Below are positions 3,252 to 39,067 of a stretch of DNA of 64,000 nucleotides, one piece after another. Origin of the DNA: Spirochaetia bacterium (GTDB lineage: Bacteria; Spirochaetota; Spirochaetia; WTKD01; G963693115); the NCBI GenBank assembly GCA_965216965.1, contig CBDCGX010000003.1, forward strand, positions 24,033-88,032, written 5' to 3'. Numbering within the stretch: the stretch's first letter is position 1; each line of letters starts with the position of its first letter. The notes below the pieces were generated by a model that worked only from the letters and a program-made list of their open reading frames with translations, was not told the DNA's origin and did no database searches. Made by a program: the position numbers and the translations under genes.

Positions 3252-4584
3252 ATGCATTGTAAAAGCACACGATATTTTTTAGACACAACTAATCATGTTT
3301 TTGATAACACTGGTGTGTCATTTACGGATGCTGTATTTGAAGGACTTGCTTTAGACGGAGGACTATATTATCCTTCGTCAATAATAGATCTATCTCAAAT
3401 TATTTTATCTTTACCTCATGATATATCGTTTGTAGATCTTTGTATTAAAATTACCTATGGGTTGTTTTCGGATGAGTTTTCTATGGAAGAGGTAGAAAAA
3501 ATATGTAAACGAGCATTTTCTTTTTCTCCCATAGTGAGTCCCATAAATGATGAAATAATTTTATTGGAATTATTTCATGGACCTTCTTGTGCTTTTAAAG
3601 ATTTTGGAGCAGCATATCTTGCTTCGGTAATGGATCTTCATCTTAGTAAGACACGTTCACACACAACTATACTTACTGCTACAAGTGGAGATACTGGTGG
3701 AGCGGTTGCACAAGCTTTTTTTAGAAAAGAAAATATTAGAGTGTTTATTTTGTACCCGTCAGGGAGAGTAAGCCCTTTGCAAGAAAAACAGCTTACCGGA
3801 TTAGGGGGAAATATTATTGCACTTGAGGTAGATGGAAGTTTTGATGATTGTCAAAGAATGGTGAAAAAGATATTTGCTGATGAAGAATTAAGAAGTAAAA
3901 CCCTCCTTACGTCGGCAAATAGTATTAATATAGGGAGACTTATTCCGCAATCGTTTTATTATATATATGCTTGGAATATGCTAAGGCGTAGATGTGGTGA
4001 TGATATACTTTTTTTCTGTGCCAAGTGGTAATTTTGGGAATCTAACGGCTGGACTTTTGGCATGGAGGTGGGGAGTTCCACTTAAGCATTTTGTTGCAGC
4101 TACGAATAGAAATAAAATAGTTCCCGAATATATTAAAACAGGGATATATGCGCCACAGCCTTCTATACACACAATTGCAAATGCCATGGATGTTGGAGAT
4201 CCCAGTAATTTTGCACGAATGAAAGTGCTTTTTAATGAAATAAATATTCCTATGAGAGATATTATTTATGGAGAGTGGGTAACTGATTCTGATATTAAAA
4301 GTACTATACAAGATGTTTTTAATAAGGAAAAGAGGTATATTTGTCCTCATACAGCTGCGGGAGTCAAAGCTGCCCAAAGAGTTATAAAAAAGACTTCGTA
4401 TAATCAGGCAGTGGTACTTGCAACTGCAGCTGCGGGCAAGTTTTCTGAAGTTATAGAGTCAATATGTGGAGAAAAACCGCTATTTCCTCATCAATTAGAG
4501 ATGTTTTTGGATAAGATGATGTGTGTGAGGCATATTTCTACAGATGAACAGATTGTAAAAGACATAATTTGCTCTTTTTTGTAG
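3252..4584 (+). pseudogene. thrC: threonine synthase, split into two overlapping ORFs (3252-4031, 3994-4584) by a 1-nt frameshift
   Basis: HGPSCAFKDFGA (PLP-lysine motif) and TATSGDTGGA lie in the first ORF; FSVPSGNFGNLTAG and DVGDPSNF lie in the second. The frames switch at a T7 run (4009-4015). T6 would read ..DDILFSVPSGNFGN.. as one ORF of about 443 codons. Confidence 0.85.
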
Positions 4585-4625: not shown

Positions 4626-4652
4626 TAAATTGCTTAAAAGAATAACCGATTA
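4626..4652 (+). promoter_or_regulatory. possible sigma-28 (FliA)-type promoter: TAAA (4626-4629) - N15 - ACCGATTA (4645-4652)
   Basis: Spacing is exactly that of the TAAA-N15-GCCGATAA consensus. The -10 matches 6/8 including the CCGAT core. It ends 22 nt before the ATG at 4675. Confidence 0.35.
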
Positions 4653-4674: not shown

Positions 4675-7473
4675 ATGAATGAAAAACAGTTACGAGCATT
4701 TGAAAAACACCTATTAAAGTTTGGAGATGAGCAAAGATCTGAAGAGAAGCCTTTTGTTTCGATTTTTGACATGACTAGCACTGAAAGTTTTTTTAAACAA
4801 CAAAAAGAAAAACTTTCTAGTCTTTTAAAGAGTGTTATTCCTGAAAATTTAGATGAAGAAGATGAGGATGATACTAAAGATACCATTGATGATAGAGAAA
4901 CACCTACTAAGCAAAAAACTGAGATAGTAACAAAAGATGCTTTAGCACAAACAGGGGAAGGGGGAGAGGAAGCTACTTTTCCTGGAGATTCTGATAATGA
5001 TATTGATTTTGAAGAAGAGATTGAAGAATCTGAAGAAGAGATCAGTGAGATAGAAGAGGAGTTAGAACAAGAGATAGAGGAAGAAATTGAAGGACCAGTT
5101 GCATTTGGGCTTCCTTCGGAGTATAAGGACTTTAAGGATTATTTACTTCCATCTGTAGATGATGTATTTAGACCACTTTTAAAACATACTGCAATTTCTG
5201 ATATTGTTCTTGCGGGAACCGATAATCTTAAAATAGATGAAGATATTGATGAAAAGATATTAGAAGATGATTATGACTTTTTTGAACAAAAAAAAGCACA
5301 GGAAGCTGAAAAAGATCTAACGGAAGATGATAAGAAATTATTCTTATCAAACTTAGATTCATATAATGTCTTTATAAAGAAAACAATTATACATATTTTA
5401 ACGACTAATGAATTAAGCGAAGAGTGTCGGAAGCTTATAAGACTTGTGATTAATGGAGCAAGGGCAAGAAGTGTTTTACACGAGTGTGAAAAAATACTAA
5501 ATATAGAGTTGAATGTTCCTAGTGATTGGGTAATATATACAAATAAATCTCTCAAAACAAAGTTGTTGGGTGCTGCTGAAATAATTCAAATGACAGTGTA
5601 TTTTGTTGGTGTTAGCGTTTTCCCAATTGTTGCAAGCATTACTGTTATCTTTTTTATTAGTTTCTATTTTATTGTAGAACCAGTTCGGGCTCTTATACAA
5701 TATAGATCAGGATATGAGGCATTGATAGGTGAAAATTATGAAAAAAGTGAGAAATGTTTTGTAAGAGCATCAAGTATATGGCATATGCAAAAATATTATT
5801 TCAAATATGCCAATGAATATATTACTCAAAAAAAATACGGAGAAGCACAGAAGAAATATGAACAACTTCTTTTTGGGTTAGATAATACTTTGAGAAAGTA
5901 TGTTAAGGAATCTGTTTTAAATAAAAAATATTCGTCATTACATTATGTAGGAGGACAATATAGACAATTGAATACATTTGTCAATTTTTCTCGTAAGGGG
6001 TTTAATAGACTTGTCTCATTAGAAAGGGATGTGTTTTTAAATTTTGATACTGTGGAAAGATACCAGGGTTTTTGGATTATAAAATTTCCATCTGATAAGA
6101 AAATGTATATGTCAATTGGAGACACCTATGTACAATGGTATGATATAAATAAAGAAAAATATCTCTTAGATAAGGCACTTGAAAATTATTCTAAGGCAAT
6201 TATAATTTCAAACTCTTCTGATGAATCATTACTTAGGCGAGTACGGTATGCGGTAAGAGTAGGAGAGGAAGAGTATTTAAATAAAATACAACGGGTATTG
6301 TTAATGCCAAAAGAAAAGGCTGATATAGATATTGTATTTAATCCATATATGGAGCTTGTTGAATATAGAATAAATAAAGGACAGGCAAACTATGTAGCAG
6401 AATTATTAGATAAAATACGTGTTACACACCCAGATTATTCTGAAATACCCTATCTGTATGCATTGTACTATGGAATGATAGGAGACTCTAATAAATATAA
6501 GCAATCTCTTTTAGAGGCAAAGCAAAGATATGCTTCGGAGACGTTATATGGGAAAAAATATATTCGTGCGATTAATGTTAATATTTTGTTGGCAAAATAC
6601 ATGTTAGATCAAGAAGTAAATATCAAGGCAGCAAATAATATTTTATATACTGCAGAAAAGCAATATACAGACATAAAAAGAATATCTCGATTAAAAGATA
6701 TTTCTGTAATAGAAATGAGGATATACCTTTTAAAAACAAAGATTGAATTATTAAATAATAATGTAAATCGTGCACAAGTATACTTGTCAAAAATAGTAGA
6801 TACAGAAAATAAAGATGCAGATACCATTGGATATTATCAAGGATTAATATATTATTTATCAAGGGATTTTAGCAAGGCATCTAAATTATTTGTATCATTT
6901 ATAAATAAAAAAACTGAAGAACTTTCATTTGATAATATAAAAGAGTTTAAGAGTGCAATCGTAGATGTTGATTCTGATGTGTATAGTTATGTATACCCTC
7001 GTAATAGTATTATAAATACACCATTAAAGAATAAAGAAGACATATTCTTAGTAACGGGAAACGCTCTACACCTTGCAGAAAACTATGCTGTATCTGCAGT
7101 AATGTATCAAAAAGCGATAGAGAGTATACGTGATAGCAATATAGAAGAAATAGGAAGAAAGGATATTCAATATAAAACCTCTCTCTATAGGTTGTCTCAG
7201 TTGTTAATAACTGTAAAAAATAATCTGGGAGTGTCTTTATATTATTTGTCTCAAACAAAAAACAACTCTGATGAGTCTAATAATTTATTAGAAGAGTCTC
7301 TCAAGAACTTAAGAGATGCAAATACAATGGTCCAAAACCTTTATAGAGATAGCAATGAAAGTACTCGTTTATTTAGGGTTGATTTGCCCGAGCAGAATAT
7401 CTCACAAATATTAAATAATAAAGATAATCTTTCTATTTATTCTGATATTGGATTCCTTTTTAAAGAATTATAA
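4675..7473 (+). CDS. hypothetical 932-aa protein: acidic N-terminal region, central hydrophobic hairpin, long TPR-like helical C-terminal region
   Basis: Long uninterrupted ORF. Glu/Asp runs (EEEIEESEEEISEIEEELEQEIEEEIEG). One ~35-aa hydrophobic stretch (MTVYFVGVSVFPIVASITVIFFISFYFIV). After that, repeated Y/A/K-rich helical segments typical of TPR-like repeats (e.g. YEKSEKCFVRAS, KKYGEAQKKYEQLL, ALENYSKAIII). Confidence 0.6.
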   Translation: MNEKQLRAFEKHLLKFGDEQRSEEKPFVSIFDMTSTESFFKQQKEKLSSLLKSVIPENLDEEDEDDTKDTIDDRETPTKQKTEIVTKDALAQTGEGGEEATFPGDSDNDIDFEEEIEESEEEISEIEEELEQEIEEEIEGPVAFGLPSEYKDFKDYLLPSVDDVFRPLLKHTAISDIVLAGTDNLKIDEDIDEKILEDDYDFFEQKKAQEAEKDLTEDDKKLFLSNLDSYNVFIKKTIIHILTTNELSEECRKLIRLVINGARARSVLHECEKILNIELNVPSDWVIYTNKSLKTKLLGAAEIIQMTVYFVGVSVFPIVASITVIFFISFYFIVEPVRALIQYRSGYEALIGENYEKSEKCFVRASSIWHMQKYYFKYANEYITQKKYGEAQKKYEQLLFGLDNTLRKYVKESVLNKKYSSLHYVGGQYRQLNTFVNFSRKGFNRLVSLERDVFLNFDTVERYQGFWIIKFPSDKKMYMSIGDTYVQWYDINKEKYLLDKALENYSKAIIISNSSDESLLRRVRYAVRVGEEEYLNKIQRVLLMPKEKADIDIVFNPYMELVEYRINKGQANYVAELLDKIRVTHPDYSEIPYLYALYYGMIGDSNKYKQSLLEAKQRYASETLYGKKYIRAINVNILLAKYMLDQEVNIKAANNILYTAEKQYTDIKRISRLKDISVIEMRIYLLKTKIELLNNNVNRAQVYLSKIVDTENKDADTIGYYQGLIYYLSRDFSKASKLFVSFINKKTEELSFDNIKEFKSAIVDVDSDVYSYVYPRNSIINTPLKNKEDIFLVTGNALHLAENYAVSAVMYQKAIESIRDSNIEEIGRKDIQYKTSLYRLSQLLITVKNNLGVSLYYLSQTKNNSDESNNLLEESLKNLRDANTMVQNLYRDSNESTRLFRVDLPEQNISQILNNKDNLSIYSDIGFLFKEL

Positions 7474-13634: not shown

Positions 13635-14756
13635 TTAAGATTTGTTTTTTATATCATGCCATTCTATGTTTTTGTAAGAAGAGATTGTTTTTTTTGCATT
13701 ATAAGAAGTAATGTAAGGATATAATTCTGATGTAAGTCCGCAGGGAATGTTTTGTTCGCTTCGTAAGAAAGTACAGTTTGCTTTGGTAAAAGATTCTCCC
13801 TCTTTTACTGCACATTGTGTAAAAAGACTTCTTCTACTTGTATGATAGTGCGAATATAGTGGAGCACTCCAAGAAAGAGGGCGTGGTGATATGGTATTGT
13901 TTTTTGTTCCATGTACGCATTCGTTGTATACTTCTTGACCATATGTCCTTTTAACATAAGGGATTCTTTCTTTTTCTGGGAGCGATATGGTAGTATTTAC
14001 ATCATTTACCATTTTTGAAAATTCTGAGGGAGTAAGTGCTATGGGATCGTCGGGGGATGTACCATGAGAATCTAGCGTAAAATGCTTTTCTGTTACTGTG
14101 CTTCCAAGTGCAGCGGCTATACTTGCAAGTATGGAGCTATTAGTACTGTGGTCAGATATGCCTAGTGTGCAATTAAAAAGGCTTTTGTATTTTAGAAGTA
14201 ACAAGAGTTTGTATTCAGCTAGCTCTGCAGGATAACGAGTTACGCATCTAAGAATAGTGATGTTGTCTTCATTAGACACATTTGTGATAATTTTGAGAGC
14301 ATTATATATATCTATAAGAGATGCAAGACCTGTTGAAAGGATTATTTGTACATGTGTTTTTTTCTTATAAAGTGCTATAGCGTTGAGGAGCGTGGTATAG
14401 TTTATCTCAGGAGAGGCAATTTTTATTCTTATTGGAGAAAGTTTTTGTAAAAGGGATAAAGATTGATGACCAAAAACACTGCATAAAAATTGTAGATTGC
14501 GCGATTCGGCGTAATCTTTTATGCTTTTGTAAAACTCAAAAGGTTTTTCTACAGACTTGAAGTATTTATAAATATCTATATTTCTTGTAGGCACTGCTAT
14601 ATGACCAGTATAGGGAGAGACTATTTCGTTTGCGATAACCCATTGGAATTTTACAGTGTGTGCTCCCGCATCTTTTGCAGCATCTATAAGTCTTTTTGCG
14701 TTAGAAACAGAACCAAGATGCGAAGTTCCTATTTCTGCTATGTATTCATGATTCAT
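13635..14756 (-). CDS. NeuB-family nonulosonic acid synthase (N-acetylneuraminate/pseudaminate/legionaminate synthase-like)
   Basis: N-terminal IAEIGTSHLGSVSNAKRLIDAAKDAGAHTVKFQ matches the NeuB TIM-barrel start. GISDHS motif. C-terminal extension consistent with a SAF domain. Confidence 0.8.
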   Translation of the reverse strand: MNHEYIAEIGTSHLGSVSNAKRLIDAAKDAGAHTVKFQWVIANEIVSPYTGHIAVPTRNIDIYKYFKSVEKPFEFYKSIKDYAESRNLQFLCSVFGHQSLSLLQKLSPIRIKIASPEINYTTLLNAIALYKKKTHVQIILSTGLASLIDIYNALKIITNVSNEDNITILRCVTRYPAELAEYKLLLLLKYKSLFNCTLGISDHSTNSSILASIAAALGSTVTEKHFTLDSHGTSPDDPIALTPSEFSKMVNDVNTTISLPEKERIPYVKRTYGQEVYNECVHGTKNNTISPRPLSWSAPLYSHYHTSRRSLFTQCAVKEGESFTKANCTFLRSEQNIPCGLTSELYPYITSYNAKKTISSYKNIEWHDIKNKS

Positions 14757-14768
14757 CTTTTTAATTAT

Positions 14769-16055
14769 TTAAGTGTTTTTGATTGTAGAAAAACCACAGT
14801 AGGGAACTAGTGCGGCGGGGATAGTTATTGTTCCATCTTTATTTTGAAAATTTTCAAAAAGGGCAACAAGGGTACGAGATATTGCAATGGCAGTTCCATT
14901 GAGCATGTGAGGGAAAAACCGATGTTTCTTTCCGTTTTCATCTATGTATTGACTTCGTATTTTAAGACGCCTTGCTTGATAGTCGGTGCAATTTGAGGTG
15001 CTTGTAATTTCTCCATATTCTCCTTTGCCTCTTCCGGGCATCCATGCTTCTAAATCAAACTTTCTATAGGCAGGAGCACCAAGATCCCCTGTGCAAGTAT
15101 CCACTATTCTATAGGGAATAGTGAGTGTGGTATATATTTCTTCTTCTATTGTTAAAAGTTGATTATGTATTTCTTCAGATTCTTCTGGATTACAAAACAC
15201 AAACATTTCTAACTTAGTGAATTGATGGACTCTATAAAGCCCCTTGGAGTATGTTCCGGTGGCTCCTGCTTCTTTGCGGAAACAGTGTGAGATACCAGCT
15301 ATTTTTATGGGGAGCGTTTCTTTAGGTATAATACTATTTGCATAATAGCCTCCGAGCGGTATTTCAGAAGTGCCTATAAGAGCGAGATTCTCATTTTCTA
15401 TACAATAAATATTACTTTCTTTTCCACGAGGATTAAACCCAATGCCATCTAATATGGTTGTTTTTGCAATATCGGGGGTTTGGAGTATGGTAAAGTCATG
15501 TTTTTTGAGTATATCAATACCAAAACGCAGAAGAGCTAATTCAAGGATAACGGCTTCATTCTTGAGATAATAAAATTTTGTTCCAGCAACTTCAGTAGCT
15601 TTGTCAAAATCTATAATATCTAGTTGTATTCCAAGTTCTACATGGTCTTTAGGTTTAAAGTCAAATTGCGGAATAGATCCCTTTGTTTGTATAACAAGGT
15701 TATCTTTTTCTTCTTTCCCTATAGACACGTGAGGATGGCAAAGATTAGGTATTGTTTTTGCAATAGTTGTTAGTTTTTTTTCAAGTATTTCATGCTTTTT
15801 AGTAAGCTCTAGAATGTGGTTCTTTATATATTTCCCTTTTTCTATATATTCGTTTCTCTCTGCAGCATTAGTTGCTTGAGACGAATGTTTTGCAATAGTA
15901 TTTTTTTGCTGTTGTGAGTTTTCTAATTCTTGTTGAATTGATATGGTTTTCTTATAGATCTGTACAAGTTCTTCTACATTATCGCGCATATTGCGTATTT
16001 TTGATGAGGTGCTAAATTGGTTGGCATTTTCAATAATATATTTTATATCTAACAT
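14769..16055 (-). CDS. serS: serine--tRNA ligase
   Basis: N-terminal coiled-coil arm. Class II motifs FRKEAG, GEITSTSNCTDYQARRL, LNGTAIAISRTLVALFENFQ. Confidence 0.95.
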   Translation of the reverse strand: MLDIKYIIENANQFSTSSKIRNMRDNVEELVQIYKKTISIQQELENSQQQKNTIAKHSSQATNAAERNEYIEKGKYIKNHILELTKKHEILEKKLTTIAKTIPNLCHPHVSIGKEEKDNLVIQTKGSIPQFDFKPKDHVELGIQLDIIDFDKATEVAGTKFYYLKNEAVILELALLRFGIDILKKHDFTILQTPDIAKTTILDGIGFNPRGKESNIYCIENENLALIGTSEIPLGGYYANSIIPKETLPIKIAGISHCFRKEAGATGTYSKGLYRVHQFTKLEMFVFCNPEESEEIHNQLLTIEEEIYTTLTIPYRIVDTCTGDLGAPAYRKFDLEAWMPGRGKGEYGEITSTSNCTDYQARRLKIRSQYIDENGKKHRFFPHMLNGTAIAISRTLVALFENFQNKDGTITIPAALVPYCGFSTIKNT

Positions 16056-27717: not shown

Positions 27718-29367
27718 CTATAGTGCAATATTTCTAAGTTTTTGGAATAATGCTGTTTGTTCAATGGGGGTTAATTTTCCAAAGACATTTAGTACAGTAT
27801 CTTTACATATATTATTTTTTTTATGGCGTACTATTTCTGAAGAAGAGGATGATCTTTCTTCTTGTAATGTGTCTTTTAGAATATTTTCCCATGTATGTAT
27901 GTGCTTCTGTAATGTTTTCTTGTTATAGTTATGATGTATTTGTTTAAAAAATATTCGTGGGGCTTTAGATTCTTTCTTTCGGTTTATTGGTATATGCGTT
28001 TGTACAAGAAAATTCATGGTAAGCATATGTGATATGGCACCATTGTTTTTTGTTAGAAGAATAGTTCTTGTTTTTTTTCGATTATCTTTCCAATGAGTAA
28101 ACCATTTTTCATACATAGCGAGAGAAGAGTCTTGTTTTATTGGGTGATTATATCGAGTAATGGAAAGAGAATACGGAAGGTTTATATATGATTTTCTTGT
28201 AATAGAGTCTAGCGTAGATATACGATTCCCATTCCGTTCAGAAGAATAGTTAGTGTGAGGATAACAGTGTGATCCACATATATCTGTGCTTACATCAAAC
28301 CCTACAATATAAACGGTGTTTTTTGTAACATTCCATGCTAGTTCTATGGCAGTTCCCATAACAGTTGCGTAGTATGATAGTTGTATATGCGAAGGGTTAA
28401 GAGCTAATAGTATTTCAGGAAAGTCATTTGTGTGAAGTATTATTATTTTTTCATTATTTTTATAAAAAAGATGTGTTCTTGCTGCACTTATAGGCATTGC
28501 TACGTAAGGCCGTTGTGGTTTGGGGATTTTTGATATGTATTCTTTTATAAGATAATGGATATGAAGATGTTTTTGTGCATAAAAGCTGGCATCTTGGTGT
28601 ACGATAATATCGGGAATTATATCGTTTGCATATAAACATTCGAGAGATGAGCTTGTTGCAATAATAATTATATGGGGTCGGATAGTTTTTAAATATTGTG
28701 TATGGTATAATAAGCTAGGACCTGCACCAATTACTACAGCAGGCAAAGAGCTTGCCTTTTCAATAACATATGAGGCATTTGTGTTTTTATAGTGGAATAC
28801 TGCATTAGATATCCATCTTTTTACAAAAAATGTTTCTGTAATACGTTCTGCTGCAAAGAGCTCTAATACTTCTTTTATTATTTTTAACACCTCTTTCGAT
28901 TGTTTTGTCCATATGGAAAGAGAAGGGTTCCAGTGTAATACAATGATTTCTTGAAGAGAAAATTGACGGAGAAGCGATTGAAGCACTGTATATGTATGTT
29001 TATTGTTGTGATTATAATGTATTATGTTTCCTGACGAAAATATTTCTTCTTCTGATTTTGCTACATAATTTTTATTATGTAGCATATAGTTTTTTTTTGA
29101 AAACATGTAAATTGCTGTGTGTAAATAAATAGAAATTATAGTTGCATCTGGATATTGTTCAATAATAGGATTGTTTTCGTATCCCATTGCTGCTCCTACA
29201 ATTACAAATATTTTAGGGTTTTTATCTTTGTTTTGTGGAGAGAAAAGTTGTTGAGTAATAGTATTTTGGGCTTCTTTATTAGGATTATAAGAAGAATGTA
29301 ATAGTTTCCCATTTATTTTGCATGTAGAGATACCTCTAGGTGATGTGAAAAATAATGGATTATTCAA
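27718..29367 (-). CDS. motility accessory factor (Maf, DUF115) family protein, putative nonulosonic-acid flagellin glycosyltransferase; TTG start overlapping the upstream stop
   Basis: N-terminal LHSSYNPNKEA motif, central VVIGAGPSL motif followed by IIIIATSSS and IVHQD, then VGFDVS. This layout is as I recall it for Campylobacter/Helicobacter/Aeromonas Maf proteins. Confidence 0.75.
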   Translation of the reverse strand: MNNPLFFTSPRGISTCKINGKLLHSSYNPNKEAQNTITQQLFSPQNKDKNPKIFVIVGAAMGYENNPIIEQYPDATIISIYLHTAIYMFSKKNYMLHNKNYVAKSEEEIFSSGNIIHYNHNNKHTYTVLQSLLRQFSLQEIIVLHWNPSLSIWTKQSKEVLKIIKEVLELFAAERITETFFVKRWISNAVFHYKNTNASYVIEKASSLPAVVIGAGPSLLYHTQYLKTIRPHIIIIATSSSLECLYANDIIPDIIVHQDASFYAQKHLHIHYLIKEYISKIPKPQRPYVAMPISAARTHLFYKNNEKIIILHTNDFPEILLALNPSHIQLSYYATVMGTAIELAWNVTKNTVYIVGFDVSTDICGSHCYPHTNYSSERNGNRISTLDSITRKSYINLPYSLSITRYNHPIKQDSSLAMYEKWFTHWKDNRKKTRTILLTKNNGAISHMLTMNFLVQTHIPINRKKESKAPRIFFKQIHHNYNKKTLQKHIHTWENILKDTLQEERSSSSSEIVRHKKNNICKDTVLNVFGKLTPIEQTALFQKLRNIAL

Positions 29368-31859
29368 TGTGTTTTATAATCACGATGAATCCCAAGAGAT
29401 TTACATAATTTCATATAATCTTTGTAAACAGGGTGAGCTATAAAGGAGGCATATACATTAGAGGGTAGTTTTTCTATATGTTCTTGAAGAAATGTAAGAA
29501 TCCTTTGTAACAGATTTCTTTGTTGTTTAGAAACATGTTGTGGAAAAGATATTTTTTTTACTGGTTGATTGCTAGTATTGTATCTCATCTGCCGCATATT
29601 TTGTATCCTTTCCGAAGATTTAAGCAAATATTTTATACGGCGTTCTAATTGAGTAAGTTTTCTATCTAGGACAGTATAGTGATTTCTTGAAACAGCGTGT
29701 GAAAAGGGCGACATGGTGGAGTGTTCCTTTATTGATGAGGACTTCAAATACTTTATAGAGGCTTTTGTTCGGTAAGGTGTCTTTATTGTCTTTGTAGGAG
29801 CTGTAATAAGATATGAAGAAGGTTTTTGACTTTTCTTTTTATAAATAACATCATTTCCATTTTTATTTATGACGTTGACAACTTCATTTAGACTTAAGGG
29901 AGCAGAGTCATTTTCGTCTGCTATAGAGGAATTATGTATGCTGTTATTGTTATCAGTGCTAGTGGTCTTTATAATTGACATGCTATTGTTATAGGGGGGA
30001 TTATCTGTTATTTCTGAAGTGTCTTTTTTTATTTGAAACGATTCATATGATTTATCGATTTCTAAAGTACTAGAGCGGCTTTCTGTATTATCTTTTTCTA
30101 AAGGTATAAGATTATTGGTCTTTGGTGTATTATTTGTGCTTATATTTAAAGATATAGCGGTGTTTTTAGACGCTGTATCGCTATTCTCAATTGTATTAGT
30201 CGTTTTTGTTTCAAGAATTGTATGTAGTTCGTTTTCATCTAAGGCACTAGAAGTATTGAGGAAATCACTTTCATGATTGTCATCTTTTTTTGGAGGTGTA
30301 GGTGAGTGTTCTTGTGATATATTTTCCTTTCCATCTAAGGCACTAGAAGTATTGAGGAAATCACTTTCATGATTGTCATCTTTTTTTGGAGGTGTAGGTG
30401 AGTGTTCTTGTGATATATTTTCCTTTCCATCTAAGGCACTAGAAGTATTGAGGAAATCACTTTCATGATTGTCATCTTTTTTTGGAGGTGTAGGTGAGTG
30501 TTCTTGTGATATATTTTCCTTTCCATCTAAGGCACTAGAAGTATTGAGGAAATCACTTTCATGATTGTCATCTTTTTTTGGAGGTGTAGGTGAGTGTTCT
30601 TGTGATATATTTTCCTTTCCATCTAAGGCACTAGAAGTATTGAGGAAATCACTTTCATGATTGTCATCTTTTTTTGGAGGTGTAGGTGAGTGTTCTTGTG
30701 ATATATTTTCCTTTCCATCTAAGGCACTAGAAGTATTGAGGAAATCACTTTCATGATTGTCATCTTTTTTTGGAGGTGTAGGTGAGTGTTCTTGCGATAT
30801 ATTTTCCTTTCCATCTAAGGCACTAGAAGTATTGAGGAAATCACTTTCATGATTGTCATCTTTTTTTGGAGGTGTAGGTGAGTGTTCTTGCGATATATTT
30901 TCCTTTCCATCTAAGGCACTAGAAGTATTGAGGAAATCACTTTCATGATTGTCATCTTTTTTTGGAGGTGTAGGTGAGTGTTCTTGTGATATGTTTTTTT
31001 TAGTAGATGAGAGTGTGGAAGTGTTTGTGTTTGAAGGGTTGTGAGGTACATATATTCCATTGCTATTCTCAATTGTATTAGTCGTTTTTGTTTCAAGAAT
31101 TGTATGTAGTTCGTCTTCATCTAAGGCACTAGAAGTATTGAGGAAATCACTTTCATGATTATCGTCTTTTTTTGGAGGCATGGGGGTGTTGCTTTGTGAT
31201 ATATTTTTTTCTTTAGCAGATGGAAGTGTGGGATTGTCTATATTTGGGGTGTTGGTATCTGCAGAGGCTTGGTTTTTATTAGTTGTTTGTGTGGAAGTGC
31301 TGGTTGCTTCAAGAATTGTGAGCAATTCATTTTTACTTAAAACACCATAATCGGAAGATGTATGTGTTGTATTGTTATCTTGTTTAAGAGAAGAGTCATG
31401 TTTAGGCGTGGTTGTGTTGTTTGACACAAATACGTTCTTATTTTCTAAAGAAGAGGGTATATTTTCAGAATTTGAGATGTCTTTTTTATTGGAAGAATTA
31501 GAAAGAGGAATGGGAGTATTCTCTTCTTTTGAGGAGCTGTTTTTTCCAAACAATGCATTAAATTCATTTTTATTAAGAGAATATGAGGATCCCATACTAT
31601 CTTGATCAGATGAAGTGGAGTGGTTTCCCCCATTGTTCTTGACGATCTTGTCAGAGTGTTTATTTATTTCATCATGTAAGTCTATATCGTGATGCGGCGA
31701 AGAGAAGGGAGGAGAAGTTTCTTGTTCTCTATGTGCGGTTTCAAGATTACTTTCTTTAAAAGAAATAGAGCTATAGCTATCCTGTTCTAAAGGCAAGTCT
31801 TTCTCATTTTCTCCATTTTCATCAATGGGTGAATCTATATATAGCATTATTTTAGACAC
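29364..31859 (-). CDS. hypothetical 831-aa acidic Ser/Thr/Asn/Pro-rich repeat protein with a basic C-terminal ~150 aa; no signal peptide
   Basis: Uninterrupted ORF through a perfectly in-frame 96-nt repeat array. AAGGAG 11 nt before the ATG. The stop overlaps the Maf start (TTGA). Confidence 0.8.
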   Translation of the reverse strand: MSKIMLYIDSPIDENGENEKDLPLEQDSYSSISFKESNLETAHREQETSPPFSSPHHDIDLHDEINKHSDKIVKNNGGNHSTSSDQDSMGSSYSLNKNEFNALFGKNSSSKEENTPIPLSNSSNKKDISNSENIPSSLENKNVFVSNNTTTPKHDSSLKQDNNTTHTSSDYGVLSKNELLTILEATSTSTQTTNKNQASADTNTPNIDNPTLPSAKEKNISQSNTPMPPKKDDNHESDFLNTSSALDEDELHTILETKTTNTIENSNGIYVPHNPSNTNTSTLSSTKKNISQEHSPTPPKKDDNHESDFLNTSSALDGKENISQEHSPTPPKKDDNHESDFLNTSSALDGKENISQEHSPTPPKKDDNHESDFLNTSSALDGKENISQEHSPTPPKKDDNHESDFLNTSSALDGKENISQEHSPTPPKKDDNHESDFLNTSSALDGKENISQEHSPTPPKKDDNHESDFLNTSSALDGKENISQEHSPTPPKKDDNHESDFLNTSSALDGKENISQEHSPTPPKKDDNHESDFLNTSSALDENELHTILETKTTNTIENSDTASKNTAISLNISTNNTPKTNNLIPLEKDNTESRSSTLEIDKSYESFQIKKDTSEITDNPPYNNSMSIIKTTSTDNNNSIHNSSIADENDSAPLSLNEVVNVINKNGNDVIYKKKSQKPSSYLITAPTKTIKTPYRTKASIKYLKSSSIKEHSTMSPFSHAVSRNHYTVLDRKLTQLERRIKYLLKSSERIQNMRQMRYNTSNQPVKKISFPQHVSKQQRNLLQRILTFLQEHIEKLPSNVYASFIAHPVYKDYMKLCKSLGIHRDYKTH
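30235..31002. repeat. tandem array, 8 x 96 bp, near-identical (encodes GKENISQEHSPTPPKKDDNHESDFLNTSSALD x 8)
   Basis: Unit starts at 30235, 30331, 30427, 30523, 30619, 30715, 30811 and 30907. The only internal differences seen are C instead of T at 30795 and 30891 (synonymous TCA/TCG on the coding strand) and divergence at the two outer edges. Confidence 0.95.
31061..31215. repeat. diverged extra copy of the array's left flank plus one unit (compare 30179-30330)
   Basis: gctattctcaattgtattagtcgtttttgtttcaagaattgtatgtagttcgt followed by a unit-like segment occurs at both 30179 and 31061 with a few substitutions. It encodes the duplicated peptide DDNHESDFLNTSSALDE[DN]ELHTILETKTTNTIENS. Confidence 0.85.
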
Positions 31860-31900
31860 TCCTTGTCTTTTGCGAACATAATAATCTTCCTTCGTTTAGC

Positions 31901-31927
31901 TTATCGGCATATAGCTATATTTCTTTA
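31901..31927 (-). promoter_or_regulatory. sigma-28 (FliA) promoter: TAAA (31927-31924) - N15 - GCCGATAA (31908-31901) on the minus strand
   Basis: The reverse complement of 31901-31927 is TAAAgaaatatagctatatGCCGATAA, an exact match to TAAA-N15-GCCGATAA. It ends 41 nt upstream of the ATG at 31859, in a 170-bp AT-rich intergenic region. Confidence 0.65.
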
Positions 31928-32028
31928 ATTGTAAAATAAAATATTTTTATTTAAATTATTGTAATTTTATATAATAATTACTTTCAGTTTTAAAGCATTT
32001 GTGATTGTACTATTATAATTATAAAGGT

Positions 32029-32664
32029 ATGTTTGATAAATATTTGCTTGTTATTACGAAATACCCGCTTTCTGTTTTTGCTCGGATATGCATAAAATAT
32101 AATATATCACCAAACATGGTAACGGTAGGTAGCCTTTTTTTTGCATTAAGCATGTTTGTAGGACTATGGAGAGGGTGGTTTGTCTTTGCACTTATTGTAG
32201 CAGTGTGTAATAGAATTATGGATGGGTTAGATGGATCTATAGCACGCATAAGTAATACAAAAAGTGTAAGTGGTGGTTTTTTAGACATTGTAATTGATTA
32301 TGTATTTTATGCAGCAGTTCCACTTGGTATGGCATTCTATTCTCCCAATCGATTTGCAATTATTGGTTCTGTAGTGCTTTTTACATATACTCTTTCGGGA
32401 GTAACATTTATGGCATCTTCTTCAGCAGCGGCAAAACTTTCTCTTAGGAGTACTGCTTTTTCTCAAAAATCAATTTATTACCCTATAAATCTTATAGAGG
32501 GGGGAGAAACAATTATTTTTAGTTTTCTTGTCTGCATAATTCCTCAGTATTTTTTTGTATTAGGACTCATAATGGCATTATCTATTATGTGCAGTCTTCC
32601 TTTTAGAATATGGCTTCATTATAAGACCTTTAGGGAAAATGAAGATCTAAATATGCATTCTTAG
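32029..32664 (+). CDS. CDP-alcohol phosphatidyltransferase family protein
   Basis: DGSIARISNTKSVSGGFLDIVIDYVFY fits DGxxARx8Gx3Dx3D. Multi-pass membrane protein. Confidence 0.8.
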   Translation: MFDKYLLVITKYPLSVFARICIKYNISPNMVTVGSLFFALSMFVGLWRGWFVFALIVAVCNRIMDGLDGSIARISNTKSVSGGFLDIVIDYVFYAAVPLGMAFYSPNRFAIIGSVVLFTYTLSGVTFMASSSAAAKLSLRSTAFSQKSIYYPINLIEGGETIIFSFLVCIIPQYFFVLGLIMALSIMCSLPFRIWLHYKTFRENEDLNMHS

Positions 32665-32688
32665 AAGAAGTATTATACTAATTAATAT

Positions 32689-33990
32689 ATGTATTCAATA
32701 GAACACCTTGCGTTAAGGATGCCAGACTTGCTTCTTCCCAATAAAGAGATAGATTTATACGCGTGGAGCGTAATTGCGTGTGATCAATTTACGAGTGATG
32801 TTTCATATTGGGATAAAGTTGCACATATCGTAAAGGATAAACCATCAACGTTTCGTCTTATGCTTCCAGAAATTTATATAGAATTACACAAGGAATTACT
32901 TCCTCAGTATTTTGAATCAATAAGGAGTCATACGCGTACATATCTCAAAAATTCAATATTTACTACTCACAAAGACTGCTTTTTACTTGTAAAACGAAAA
33001 ACATTGCAGAATCGAACTCGGTATGGGATTATGATGCAAATTGATTTGGCTCAGTATGATCCCAATCCTCATGCAAATACAATTATAAAATCTACTGAAG
33101 CGATAGTTTCGTCTCGTCTTCCAAAGCGTATAGAAATGCGTAAAAACACTATGCTTGATTTACCACATGTGCTCATGCTTTATAATGACCCTGAGAAGGT
33201 ACTCGTTCAAGCTTTACTCAAAATAGTGGAGAAGACTGCATATTCTACAGATCTTATGTTAGGAGGGGGGCATGTTACAGGTTTTTTTTGTAATAGAGAA
33301 GAAGGTAAAAAGAAAATAGAAGCTATTTTAGGTAGTATATTTAGGGAAACCATTAGTAATAATAAACATACTCTTTTTGCTGTGGGAGATGGTAATCACT
33401 CTTTGATGGCAGCAAAGCAGGTATGGCAAGATAGAGGCAGTAATATGAATGCTCCAGAACGATGGGCTCTTGTTGAACTTGTAAATGTTTTTGATGAGGG
33501 ATTGCCCGTAGAACCAATACATAGAGTGCTTTTTGATGCAGATTATAAAATGTTGTGTAGTACATTACAATCTCAAGGAGATATTGTTGAATACGAGAAA
33601 ATTTCAGATGCAAAACAACATAGTAAGAAAACGTCTGCAATTGTAGCATATAGAAATAATAGTAATTCCATGGTATATGCATTGTGGCATCCTCATAACA
33701 CACATGATATTACTGTTCTTAACTTTGAGAAAATATTAGAAAAAAATGAGAATTGTTATAAAAAAATAGATTTCACTCATGAGGAAGAATATTCTCTTTC
33801 TTTTTCTGAGAAGAAAGAATCAAAAAATATAACTATTATACTTCCCCACATACCAAAAGAATGTATCTTTGAATATGTGTATTCTCATACTGTTTTTCCT
33901 CGAAAATCATTCTCACTTGGAGAGGCAGAAGAAAAACGTTACTATATAGAAGCGTGCTTGCATTCTTCTGAAGAGAATGGGATTTTATAG
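32689..33990 (+). CDS. DUF1015-family protein
   Basis: Size (~430 aa), N-terminal LLLPNKEIDLYAWSVIACDQFTS and central FAVGDGNHSL resemble the DUF1015 family as I recall it. Confidence 0.55.
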   Translation: MYSIEHLALRMPDLLLPNKEIDLYAWSVIACDQFTSDVSYWDKVAHIVKDKPSTFRLMLPEIYIELHKELLPQYFESIRSHTRTYLKNSIFTTHKDCFLLVKRKTLQNRTRYGIMMQIDLAQYDPNPHANTIIKSTEAIVSSRLPKRIEMRKNTMLDLPHVLMLYNDPEKVLVQALLKIVEKTAYSTDLMLGGGHVTGFFCNREEGKKKIEAILGSIFRETISNNKHTLFAVGDGNHSLMAAKQVWQDRGSNMNAPERWALVELVNVFDEGLPVEPIHRVLFDADYKMLCSTLQSQGDIVEYEKISDAKQHSKKTSAIVAYRNNSNSMVYALWHPHNTHDITVLNFEKILEKNENCYKKIDFTHEEEYSLSFSEKKESKNITIILPHIPKECIFEYVYSHTVFPRKSFSLGEAEEKRYYIEACLHSSEENGIL

Positions 33991-34077
33991 TAATAGATAC
34001 GTTATAATTGTTAGTGTATTTATAGACTATTTCATTATGCAAAACAAAATGTGGTTCTATACGTTTATGGGGTGCCT

Positions 34078-34563
34078 TTAACCCGTTGCTGTGGAATTAG
34101 CAGGTTTTATTTGAGAAGACATATTGCTTTTTAAATCATATGCATAAGAATTTTTTTGCATATGTATTATATATATTGAATATATAATGAGCATGATTAT
34201 AAATGCAGAAAAAAACAATATTGGAATAGATACAAAAAAGGATTCTCTATCTTGTATAATAATTCCCGGAGTGTATGATGCTGCGGTGCTAAAGATGGGA
34301 GTATCAAGTCGAATGAGATATTCGTTTTCTGAAAGAAGACCTACTCTATGTGCGTTCATTGTAATATATGCTTTATTGGTATGAGCGAGGTAAGATTGTT
34401 CGGTCAGTGATTTCTTTATTGTTTTTAAACTTTCAACGTTCCTTTCTAATTTATTTGTTATGGATCGTTCCCCTATAAAAGAAATAATACCTCCTTTTGC
34501 AAAAATAAGCTGTAAAAAGAAGAACATACATAAAAAAGTAAAAATAATATTTCCTATGCGCAT
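34078..34563 (-). CDS. hypothetical membrane protein (possibly FtsB/DivIC-like septation protein)
   Basis: N-terminal TM helix followed by a short coiled-coil-like segment (NKLERNVESLKTIKKSLTEQ), a second TM near the C-terminus. Divergent from ftsZ. Confidence 0.4.
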   Translation of the reverse strand: MRIGNIIFTFLCMFFFLQLIFAKGGIISFIGERSITNKLERNVESLKTIKKSLTEQSYLAHTNKAYITMNAHRVGLLSENEYLIRLDTPIFSTAASYTPGIIIQDRESFFVSIPILFFSAFIIMLIIYSIYIIHMQKNSYAYDLKSNMSSQIKPANSTATG

Positions 34564-34763
34564 TTGTATTAAAATCGGCCCTTTTCTTGTAAATTTGATG
34601 TTTTTATGCTTATTTTCTAAATAAAGGCATGGTTATAGTAGGAATAAGGATATTAGTTATTAAAATAATTACGAAAAGACATAATTTACTCTTGTAAAAA
34701 AAATCATATTTTGATATATTAAAGAAAAATATAACATATTTAAATTGTACCGGGGGGGGACAA

Positions 34764-36083: not shown

Positions 36084-37052
36084 GTGGAATGCTGTTGTGT
36101 GTAATGTAGACTGTAAAGAACGTATTAAACAACAATTCCTAGATTATCTTGTTATAGAATGTCATGTTCAGAAAAACACTGTAGAAACATATATAGCAGA
36201 GATAGAACGGTTTTTAACATTTTGTAAAAAAAAAATATTATCCTTGCAGATTGCACAATACATAAAATACAACAATATATTTTATTTCGAAACGGTGATA
36301 ATGAAGTAAAAGTTGAACATATATCATCTTCTTCTTATTCAAAGCAAACCAATAAAGGAATATCTTCTAATACAATACGAAAGATAGCCTCGGCCCTTAA
36401 GACATTTTTTAAATTTTGCATACTTGAAGATATCTGCAAGATCAATCCCATGAATGTACTCACGTTGCCTAAGGTGGAAAAACATATCCCAAGAGTTCTT
36501 GAGTCAGATCACATTCTTTCTTTTTTAGAAAGAATAGATGTATCTACTTACTTAGGGATTCGTGATAGAGCATTGTTTGAGCTTATGTATGCATGCGGTA
36601 TGAGGGTGAGTGAGGTGGTACATATATTGATTCCACATCTTATGCTTGATGAGGCACTTATTAGAATAAGAGGGAAAGGGGATAAAGAAAGAATAGTGCC
36701 TATCGGGAAACAGGCGCTCTTATGGGTTAAAAAATATCTTAAAGAAGTACGACCGCATCTTAGTAAGAGAAGCTCATCACATACAGATTCGCTTTTCCTC
36801 AATTTTAGAGGGAAAACACTTTCTCGTAAAGGTATTTGGAAAAACTACAAAGAGTTACTTGGACCAATACAAGCAAGTTTACATACTCTTAGACATTCGT
36901 TTGCAACGCATCTTTTGCAAGGAGGAATGGATCTTAGAGTTGTACAGGAGCTACTGGGGCATGCAGACCTTAGTACAACGCAAATATACACACATGTACA
37001 GGACAAAGCACTCCAACATGCTCATAAGAAATATCACCCCAGAAATAAATAA
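36064..37052 (+). pseudogene. xerD: XerD-like tyrosine recombinase split by a frameshift in an A10 tract (36226-36235)
   Basis: The N-terminal ORF gives FLDYLVIECHVQKNTVETYIAEIERFLTF (core-binding domain). The frame open from 36228 reads KKNIILADCTIHKIQQYILF...IRKIASALKTFFKFCILEDICKINP and runs into the catalytic domain ([45 protein letters not shown]). A11 would make one ORF. Confidence 0.8.
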
Positions 37053-38140: not shown

Positions 38141-39067
38141 ATGAAATATAAACAAAGTGCGATTACAGAAAAAATATTACCAAAGACATATCAAAAACAT
38201 CTTATAGATTTTATAAATAATCTTTCGACAGTGCGGAAATGTAGTATGCATAGCATACATGCATATAGAAGTGATATATACACTTTTTTGCAGTGGTTAT
38301 ATAGCCAGCAATTATTAGTAGAAAATGTGGAATATAAACATGTACGATCGTTTATACGTAGAGAATCATCAAATGGAAAGAGCAATGCAACCCTTAATAG
38401 AAAAATATCATCGTTGCGGAGTTTCTTTGATATGTTATGTCGTAGTGGATACATACAAGATAATAGTGCTTCTATGTTTGCTCTCTTTAAAAAAAAGAAA
38501 CATCTTCCCAATATTATAAGCGAGATTCAACTTAAAGATTTGCTTTCATTTAAAATACACACATTTTTAGATCTACGCGATAAGACTCTTTTTGAGTTTT
38601 TATATTCTACGGGATGTCGCATATCAGAGGCACTTAGTATTGATGCACATGAGGTAATAAATGCTACTTCGCTTATCATTTTTGGGAAAGGGAAAAAAGA
38701 GAGAAAGGTATTTCTTACTTCTGAATGTGTTTCCTTATTATCACATTATCTTCAACAAAGGGATCAAAAGATACAGCACTATAAAAAACCAGAGAATGCA
38801 TTGTTTATTAATAATAATGGGAGGCGATTAAGCAGGAATGGAGCTACGTGGCTTTTATTACAACGCCTTCGCAATTCACATATCTCCTCAATGTCTGTGC
38901 ACGATTTTAGACACTCGTTTGCTACTCATCTTTTAGATAATGGGCTTAATATAAGAGTGGTACAAGAGTTATTAGGACACAGCAATATTAGCACAACCCA
39001 AATATATACGCATATAAGTCGGTCAAATCTTATAGAACAATATAAGAAAGCGCATCCACGTGGTTAG
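38141..39067 (+). CDS. xerC: XerC/XerD-family tyrosine recombinase (intact)
   Basis: [64 protein letters not shown]. Confidence 0.8.

Follow-up and report, generated by a model that had tools for sequence, protein, structure and literature searches.

A probable sigma-28 promoter in front of a spirochete operon for a likely TP_0179-family repeat protein and a Maf-type putative flagellin glycosyltransferase

Class III flagellar promoters recognised by FliA or SigD (sigma-28) follow the consensus TAAA-N15-GCCGATAA in E. coli and B. subtilis. An identical arrangement had been proposed for positions 31901-31927 of the stretch of spirochete DNA analysed here (64 kb, hereafter the window), and the locus raises the question of whether this motif works as a FliA-dependent promoter and, if it does, which functions it would bring into the late flagellar regulon. 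The motif itself is exactly as the original prediction described it, since the reverse complement of 31901-31927 is TAAAGAAATATAGCTATATGCCGATAA, that is, TAAA-N15-GCCGATAA on the minus strand, and the pattern search confirms it. The elements of the putative promoter are the following:

31924-31927, minus strand: -35 element TAAA, extended to TAAAG as in E. coli TAAAGTTT (from the sequence and the pattern match)
31901-31908, minus strand: -10 element GCCGATAA, separated by 15 nt from the -35 element; the octamer occurs nowhere else in the window, and its CCGATAA core is kept before orthologous genes
31893-31895, minus strand: predicted transcription start, 6-8 nt past the -10 box, as expected from the usual sigma-28 geometry

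When the window was searched for TAAA-N14-16-GCCGATAA, one match was found, compared with 0.02 expected from dinucleotide-preserving shuffles (2 of 100 shuffles had a match). The octamer is present in a single copy, both strands counted together, and the claim that there is no second exact one therefore holds. The shorter CCGATAA has five copies, four of them inside coding sequence, and the copy at 31901-31927 is the only intergenic one. It is found in a gap of 145 nt (31860-32004), between a divergent CDP-alcohol phosphatidyltransferase gene (32005-32664, plus strand) and a long minus-strand ORF; the GC content of this gap is 21%, and 12% upstream of the -35 element, in agreement with the earlier description of a GC-rich octamer amid A/T-rich intergenic DNA. 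As in FliA/SigD class III promoters, all 12 consensus positions are matched, the -10 element is exact, TAAA is placed 15 nt away and a flagellum-linked operon follows on the same strand. By contrast with the promoters of E. coli and B. subtilis, the host is a deep-branching spirochete and the promoter is a prediction from the sequence. Genes for fliA, flgM and flagellin were looked for and none was found within the 64-kb window.

The operon downstream consists of two genes, as the start of the second overlaps the stop of the first by 4 nt, and its far end is head-to-head with hslU. Its features, together with a gene for nonulosonic acid synthesis located elsewhere in the window, are listed below:

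29364-31859, minus strand: repeat protein of 831 aa, or of 827 aa when counted from the ATG at 31847, probably a divergent TP_0179-family member
30228-30997, minus strand: tandem array of eight 96-bp (32-aa) units, 99% identical, within the repeat protein gene
29388-29579, minus strand: probable C-terminal TP_0179-type domain of the repeat protein, about 64 aa, three short helices (profile match and AlphaFold2)
27718-29367, minus strand: 549-aa Maf-type (MptE-like/DUF115) putative flagellin glycosyltransferase
13635-14756, minus strand: NeuB/PseI-like nonulosonic acid synthase

The 549-aa protein is assigned to the Maf-type putative flagellin glycosyltransferases because it carries a PF01973 domain (E = 9.6e-19) and because a profile of its homologues matches the Magnetospirillum Maf structure 5MU5 (E = 7.5e-8). 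The NeuB/PseI-like synthase, whose gene has no sigma-28 site of its own, probably supplies Maf with its sugar donor. The genes present in the window indicate a spirochete. The nearest relatives of the Maf protein, in Treponema MAGs, are 27% identical to it, and the nearest DUF1015 protein is 36% identical to that of the window; among the loci fetched, no relative of this genome exceeds about 36% protein identity and, judged by these sequences, the lineage of the window is isolated. With regard to the 831-aa protein, it has no signal peptide and is of low complexity, rich in Ser, Thr and Asn. Repeat genes of pathogenic treponemes vary in length, and the array of eight 96-bp copies is probably length-variable in the same manner.

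The distance from the motif to the gene requires a small correction. The motif had been placed 41 nt before the ATG, and the strand was right, but 41 nt from the -10 box leads to the GTG at 31859, which opens the longest ORF, whereas the first in-frame ATG (31847) is 53 nt away. Additionally, 21 nt past the -10 box there is an out-of-frame ATG (31879), preceded by a GAAGGAAG ribosome-binding site. The leader thus contains two further candidate elements:

31847-31879, minus strand: 10-codon mini-ORF MFAKDKECLK, behind GAAGGAAG (31886-31893), with a TAA stop that overlaps the main ATG at 31847 (TAATG)
31855-31867, minus strand: small hairpin GACA-AGGAG-UGUC (GACAAGGAGUGUC) in the RNA fold, with the ribosome-binding site of the main ORF in its loop

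The overlap of the mini-ORF stop with the main ATG might allow translational coupling. Both ribosome-binding sites of the leader contain GGA, the second GGA site, GAAGGAAG, being 19 nt upstream of the hairpin, and a GGA site in the loop of a GACA/UGUC hairpin presumably resembles CsrA-type sites. More speculatively, the hairpin and GAAGGAAG together resemble a two-site CsrA target such as those on flagellin mRNAs, and the flagellin mRNAs of T. denticola have been suggested to be CsrA targets (PMC9481697). The 5′ leader as a whole folds no more stably than its shuffles (z = -0.05), and an Rfam search of the window and the leader returned no RNA family.

The first protein of the operon was described in the original prediction as uncharacterised. 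This is correct in the sense that the protein is unstudied, but it is not an orphan, since it appears to belong to a named family. Six Treponema/Spirochaetaceae genome loci, reached via Maf, each have an acidic low-complexity protein of 650-1200 aa just upstream of the Maf gene, and the window protein aligns to the extreme C-termini of these six proteins (BLASTP E = 0.004-0.007, in a small set), its C-terminal domain being 25-31% identical to that of the Treponema proteins. A profile search with this domain retrieved 129 proteins, all of them bearing Pfam PF27359, which gene tables name “TP_0179” after the T. pallidum gene. In the reverse direction, a TP_0179 profile built without the window sequence was run on the 346 ORFs of the window, and the 831-aa ORF was its sole match, end-to-end and at the very C-terminus; the match to the family domain (about 50 aa, LSYMDQLLESLPEEKIEEFAKS..YKKLFKELGL) is weak, at 12 bits and E = 0.0047. 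Three copies of the internal DEL..IL motif (LTGDELxNIL in Treponema) are also present, and no other ORF of the window has at least two. By contrast, the N-terminal ELDxYGVWVK motif of the family is not clearly present, the N-terminus of the window protein (LEQDSYSSISFK) being at best a degenerate match, and the D+E content is 15%, compared with 30-33% in the TP_0179 family. As there is no clear YGVWVK motif and the acidity is much lower, we consider the 831-aa protein a probable, divergent member of the family.

AlphaFold2 models the C-terminal 110 aa with three short helices and a pLDDT of about 89 over the domain. A Foldseek search of this model against the PDB gave no match with E < 1 and did not connect the domain by its fold to GlfM, FliS or proteins of that kind. 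Searches of the repeat protein against NCBIfam and a Pfam library without PF27359 found nothing real, and a match to DUF7066, which falls in the repeats and below threshold, was rejected. In T. pallidum, TP0179 is annotated as a “hypothetical protein” and is known solely through population genomics, which has identified in it a recombinant, positively selected segment (omega = 1.96; PMC8789261). In many assemblies, for instance in the gene tables of comparison loci L007, L010 and L011, only the last 60-100 aa of TP_0179 ORFs are annotated and the acidic low-complexity body is left uncalled; in consequence, database entries for the family are mostly C-terminal fragments.

The window operon shares several characteristics with the TP_0179-Maf cluster of Treponema, namely a large low-complexity protein directly upstream of Maf, a probable C-terminal three-helix domain, the DEL..IL motifs, CCGATAA upstream, and DivIC and DUF1015 as neighbours. 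It differs in that its protein is Ser/Thr/Asn-rich and not strongly acidic, lacks a clear YGVWVK and contains 8 near-perfect 32-aa repeats, and in that there is one Maf gene, not two, and neither the ~300-aa nor the ~560-aa gene of those clusters. Compared with Treponema locus L011 (DUF1015 on the plus strand, DivIC on the minus strand, TP_0179 on the plus strand), the DUF1015-DivIC block is inverted in the window (32005-34563), and the CDP-alcohol phosphatidyltransferase gene is located between this block and the operon. The DivIC-like gene has a weak sigma-28-like match 8 nt before its ATG, TCAA-N15-GGCCGATTT (34572-34598, minus strand), which is probably due to chance.

The search that the original prediction had recommended, with the relaxed pattern TAAA-N14-16-[GA]CCGAT[AT][AT], was run on the 64-kb window and produced 2 matches against 0.42 expected, a count that is not significant by itself. 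The only match other than the motif precedes a FlcA-like flagellar gene:

4626-4652, plus strand: second site, TAAA-N15-ACCGATTA (full match TAAATTGCTTAAAAGAATAACCGATTA), with 22 nt between its end and the ATG that opens the FlcA-like gene
4675-7473, plus strand: 932-aa FlcA-like periplasmic flagellar collar protein (NCBIfam NF047371, E = 1.8e-62, 211.7 bits against a curated cut-off of 300, which is not reached)

Used as a query for homologues, the FlcA-like protein retrieved itself and one remote match. Both matches to the relaxed pattern are intergenic, correctly oriented and located before flagellum-linked genes, and their locations are indirect evidence that points to a working sigma-28 regulon in this organism. 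One further sigma-28-like match, inside serS (15979-16004), was weak and was judged to be a chance occurrence.

A metagenome scan with the C-terminal domain added 80 further loci, mostly from termite-gut Treponema, and the counts that follow thus refer to loci that come mostly from one environment and are phylogenetically related. In all loci with at least 2.5 kb downstream (61/61), the TP_0179 gene is followed by a Maf homologue on the same strand. For 52 loci it was possible to locate the start of the TP_0179-like gene, and a sigma-28 -10 box is found 35-105 nt upstream of it in 51 of them, as exact CCGATAA in 46 and as a one-base variant in 5 (CCGATAT three times, CCGATGA and CCGACAA once each); the remaining locus, L016, has GCCGATTA instead of CCGATAA. 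Across the 783 kb fetched, CCGATAA has a background frequency of 0.15 per kb per strand, and 47 copies are observed in those upstream regions when about 0.9 would be expected. When 7-mers are counted without any anchor over the 120 nt that precede the start codon, CCGATAA comes out first (41 of 47 dereplicated loci) and outnumbers the TAGGGAG ribosome-binding site (33 of the 47). It is also common to loci with unrelated flanks, in genomes of 42-57% GC (L006, L007, L011, L083 and L087) as well as in the window, at 33% GC, and the other copies of CCGATAA with -35-like elements in the related loci are all intragenic.

The flaB2 promoter of T. denticola (TDE1004) offers an experimental precedent for this box. 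Its start has been mapped, its -10 and -35 elements are CCGATAA and TTAA, and its authors report that FliA (TDE2683) binds to it and that flaB2 is not expressed without FliA (PMC9481697). The window site shares with this promoter the CCGATAA -10 box, a spirochete host and, putatively, a late, filament-related role, and differs from it in the -35 element (TAAA instead of TTAA), in the leader (at most about 50 nt instead of 124 nt) and in the target, which is a glycosylation operon in the window and a flagellin gene in T. denticola. Given the counts above and the flaB2 precedent, the -10 half can be considered a conserved feature of the operon in Treponema, where this box is known to serve FliA.

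The same cannot be said of the -35 half. The textbook -35/-10 geometry is restricted to the window site, L011 (TAAA-N15-TCCGACAA) and the window's FlcA site, because the termite-gut clade has instead an upstream element, CTAcTGAAAA, in which TGAAAA is shifted 2-3 nt nearer the -10 box than the canonical TAAA. Additionally, a conserved sigma-70-type TTGACA-N17-TATTAT is found about 65 nt upstream of CCGATAA in most termite-gut loci (34 of the 47 upstream regions contain ATTGACA) and at the following places:

L001, 6647-6675: TTGACA-N17-TATTAT, sigma-70-type promoter
L003, 7022-7050: TTGACA-N17-TATTAT, sigma-70-type promoter
L004, 7020-7048: TTGACA-N17-TATTAT, sigma-70-type promoter

As this sigma-70-type promoter lies further upstream, CCGATAA could sit within a longer 5′ leader in those loci. 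Between CCGATAA and the AGGGAG ribosome-binding site there is also a palindrome, AATTAAC-N7-GTTAATT (L018-L071 and other termite-gut loci), which may be an operator or a leader hairpin. The conservation of both elements makes dual sigma-70/sigma-28 control, or an additional regulator, plausible in Treponema, and these alternatives have to be weighed against the simple reading of the motif as a FliA promoter.

Dual control would extend the FliA reading instead of replacing it: a sigma-70 promoter would provide a basal level of expression and a sigma-28 promoter a late flagellar boost. The conservation of both TTGACA-N17-TATTAT and CCGATAA in the Treponema loci suggests tandem promoters, and flagellin genes of T. 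denticola are themselves split between sigma-70 and sigma-28 (PMC9481697), but the window has no sigma-70 site above chance, and we regard this arrangement as possible, if rather doubtful. It is unlikely that CCGATAA is instead the operator of another regulator, or an RNA element in a 5′ leader transcribed from an upstream sigma-70 promoter. Such a role would agree with the strong TTGACA-N17-TATTAT upstream in the Treponema loci, with the missing canonical -35 element in those loci and with the palindrome after the box; however, the 7-mer reads the same as the consensus sigma-28 -10 element and as the mapped, FliA-dependent -10 box of flaB2, its variable distance to the start (35-105 nt) is more in keeping with a promoter than with an RNA structure of fixed form, and in the window a perfect -35 element accompanies it at canonical spacing, followed by an unstructured leader that matches no Rfam family. 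Finally, although several sites with 9-10 of 12 matches to sigma-70 are found on the minus strand at 31928-32039 and one of them, TTTAAA-N16-TACAAT, abuts the TAAA, it is very improbable that the housekeeping sigma-70 transcribes the operon from an A/T-rich site in this gap and that the sigma-28 match is a non-functional coincidence, since sigma-70-like matches in the gap are at shuffle level (24 found, 23.3 expected), the exact sigma-28 motif is expected just 0.02 times in the window, and chance does not explain a -10 core kept before the orthologous operon in dozens of loci.

We therefore retain the reading of the original prediction, in which the repeat protein belongs to the late flagellar regulon, and consider that the motif is probably a functional FliA (sigma-28) dependent promoter. 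It is supported by the strand and position of the motif, by the Maf operon downstream, by the conserved CCGATAA and by the FlcA-like site. Binding of sigma-28, the transcription start, the co-transcription of the two genes and the presence of fliA in this genome are all points that we infer. In the proposed mechanism, RNA polymerase carrying sigma-28 would bind both TAAA (31924-31927) and the GCCGATAA box (31901-31908), and transcription would begin on the minus strand near 31893-31895, yielding one mRNA with the TP_0179-family repeat protein gene and the overlapping Maf glycosyltransferase gene. Maf would then be on hand while flagellin is made and, because sigma-28 would drive this single mRNA, the flagellin-modifying machinery would be made as a late flagellar function. 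Such timing fits the reported Maf-dependent glycosylation of flagellin in the cytoplasm, ahead of its export (PMC4065374).

As a promoter, the site is an ordinary instance of a well-known class; maf under flagellar sigma control is already known elsewhere, and a link between flagellin-glycosylation genes and the flagellar hierarchy is what specialists would expect. For instance, the maf gene of H. pylori (jhp0106) forms an operon with flaB under RpoN (PMC5368276). In H. pylori and, putatively, in the window, control of maf falls to an alternative sigma factor of the flagellar system; the differences are that this factor is sigma-54 in H. pylori, not sigma-28, and that maf is co-transcribed there with the flagellin gene. 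What is new is an annotation-level link, in which the TP_0179 family is paired with Maf (61/61) and no upstream element is better conserved across Treponema than a sigma-28 -10 box. This provides a first context for an unstudied family that includes a gene of the syphilis treponeme, and it leads to two predictions: TP_0179 would act as a partner of Maf when flagellin is glycosylated, and the operon would be FliA-dependent.

A possible precedent for such a partner is Shewanella GlfM, the cis-encoded specificity factor of Maf-2, a predicted four-helix bundle in a tripartite system (bioRxiv 10.1101/2023.12.03.569772). The window operon resembles this system in that a small helical domain is encoded in cis beside a TPR-less Maf, and the resemblance suggests an accessory or specificity factor. 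By contrast with GlfM, the window protein has 831 aa and is mostly disordered, and no similarity of sequence or fold (Foldseek) was found between TP_0179 and GlfM. We tentatively propose, with considerable reservation, that TP_0179 proteins, including TP0179 of T. pallidum, could form a third component, specific to spirochetes, in the Maf-dependent glycosylation of flagellin, acting as a specificity factor or scaffold functionally like GlfM and made with Maf from a late sigma-28 operon throughout Treponema and its relatives.

Some other observations were made in the window. A search for tRNA genes found none in the 64 kb, and GC skew is above 0 in every 4-kb bin. Threonine synthase is split into overlapping ORFs on the plus strand, the first (3252-4031) with the N-terminal domain and the first half of PALP, and the second (3994-4584) with the second half of PALP and THR4_C; this is a frameshift, reflecting either a pseudogene or an assembly error. 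Two tyrosine recombinase genes (36450-37052 and 38141-39067, plus strand) flank dprA, and the first of them, which encodes 200 aa with the catalytic domain only, may be truncated.
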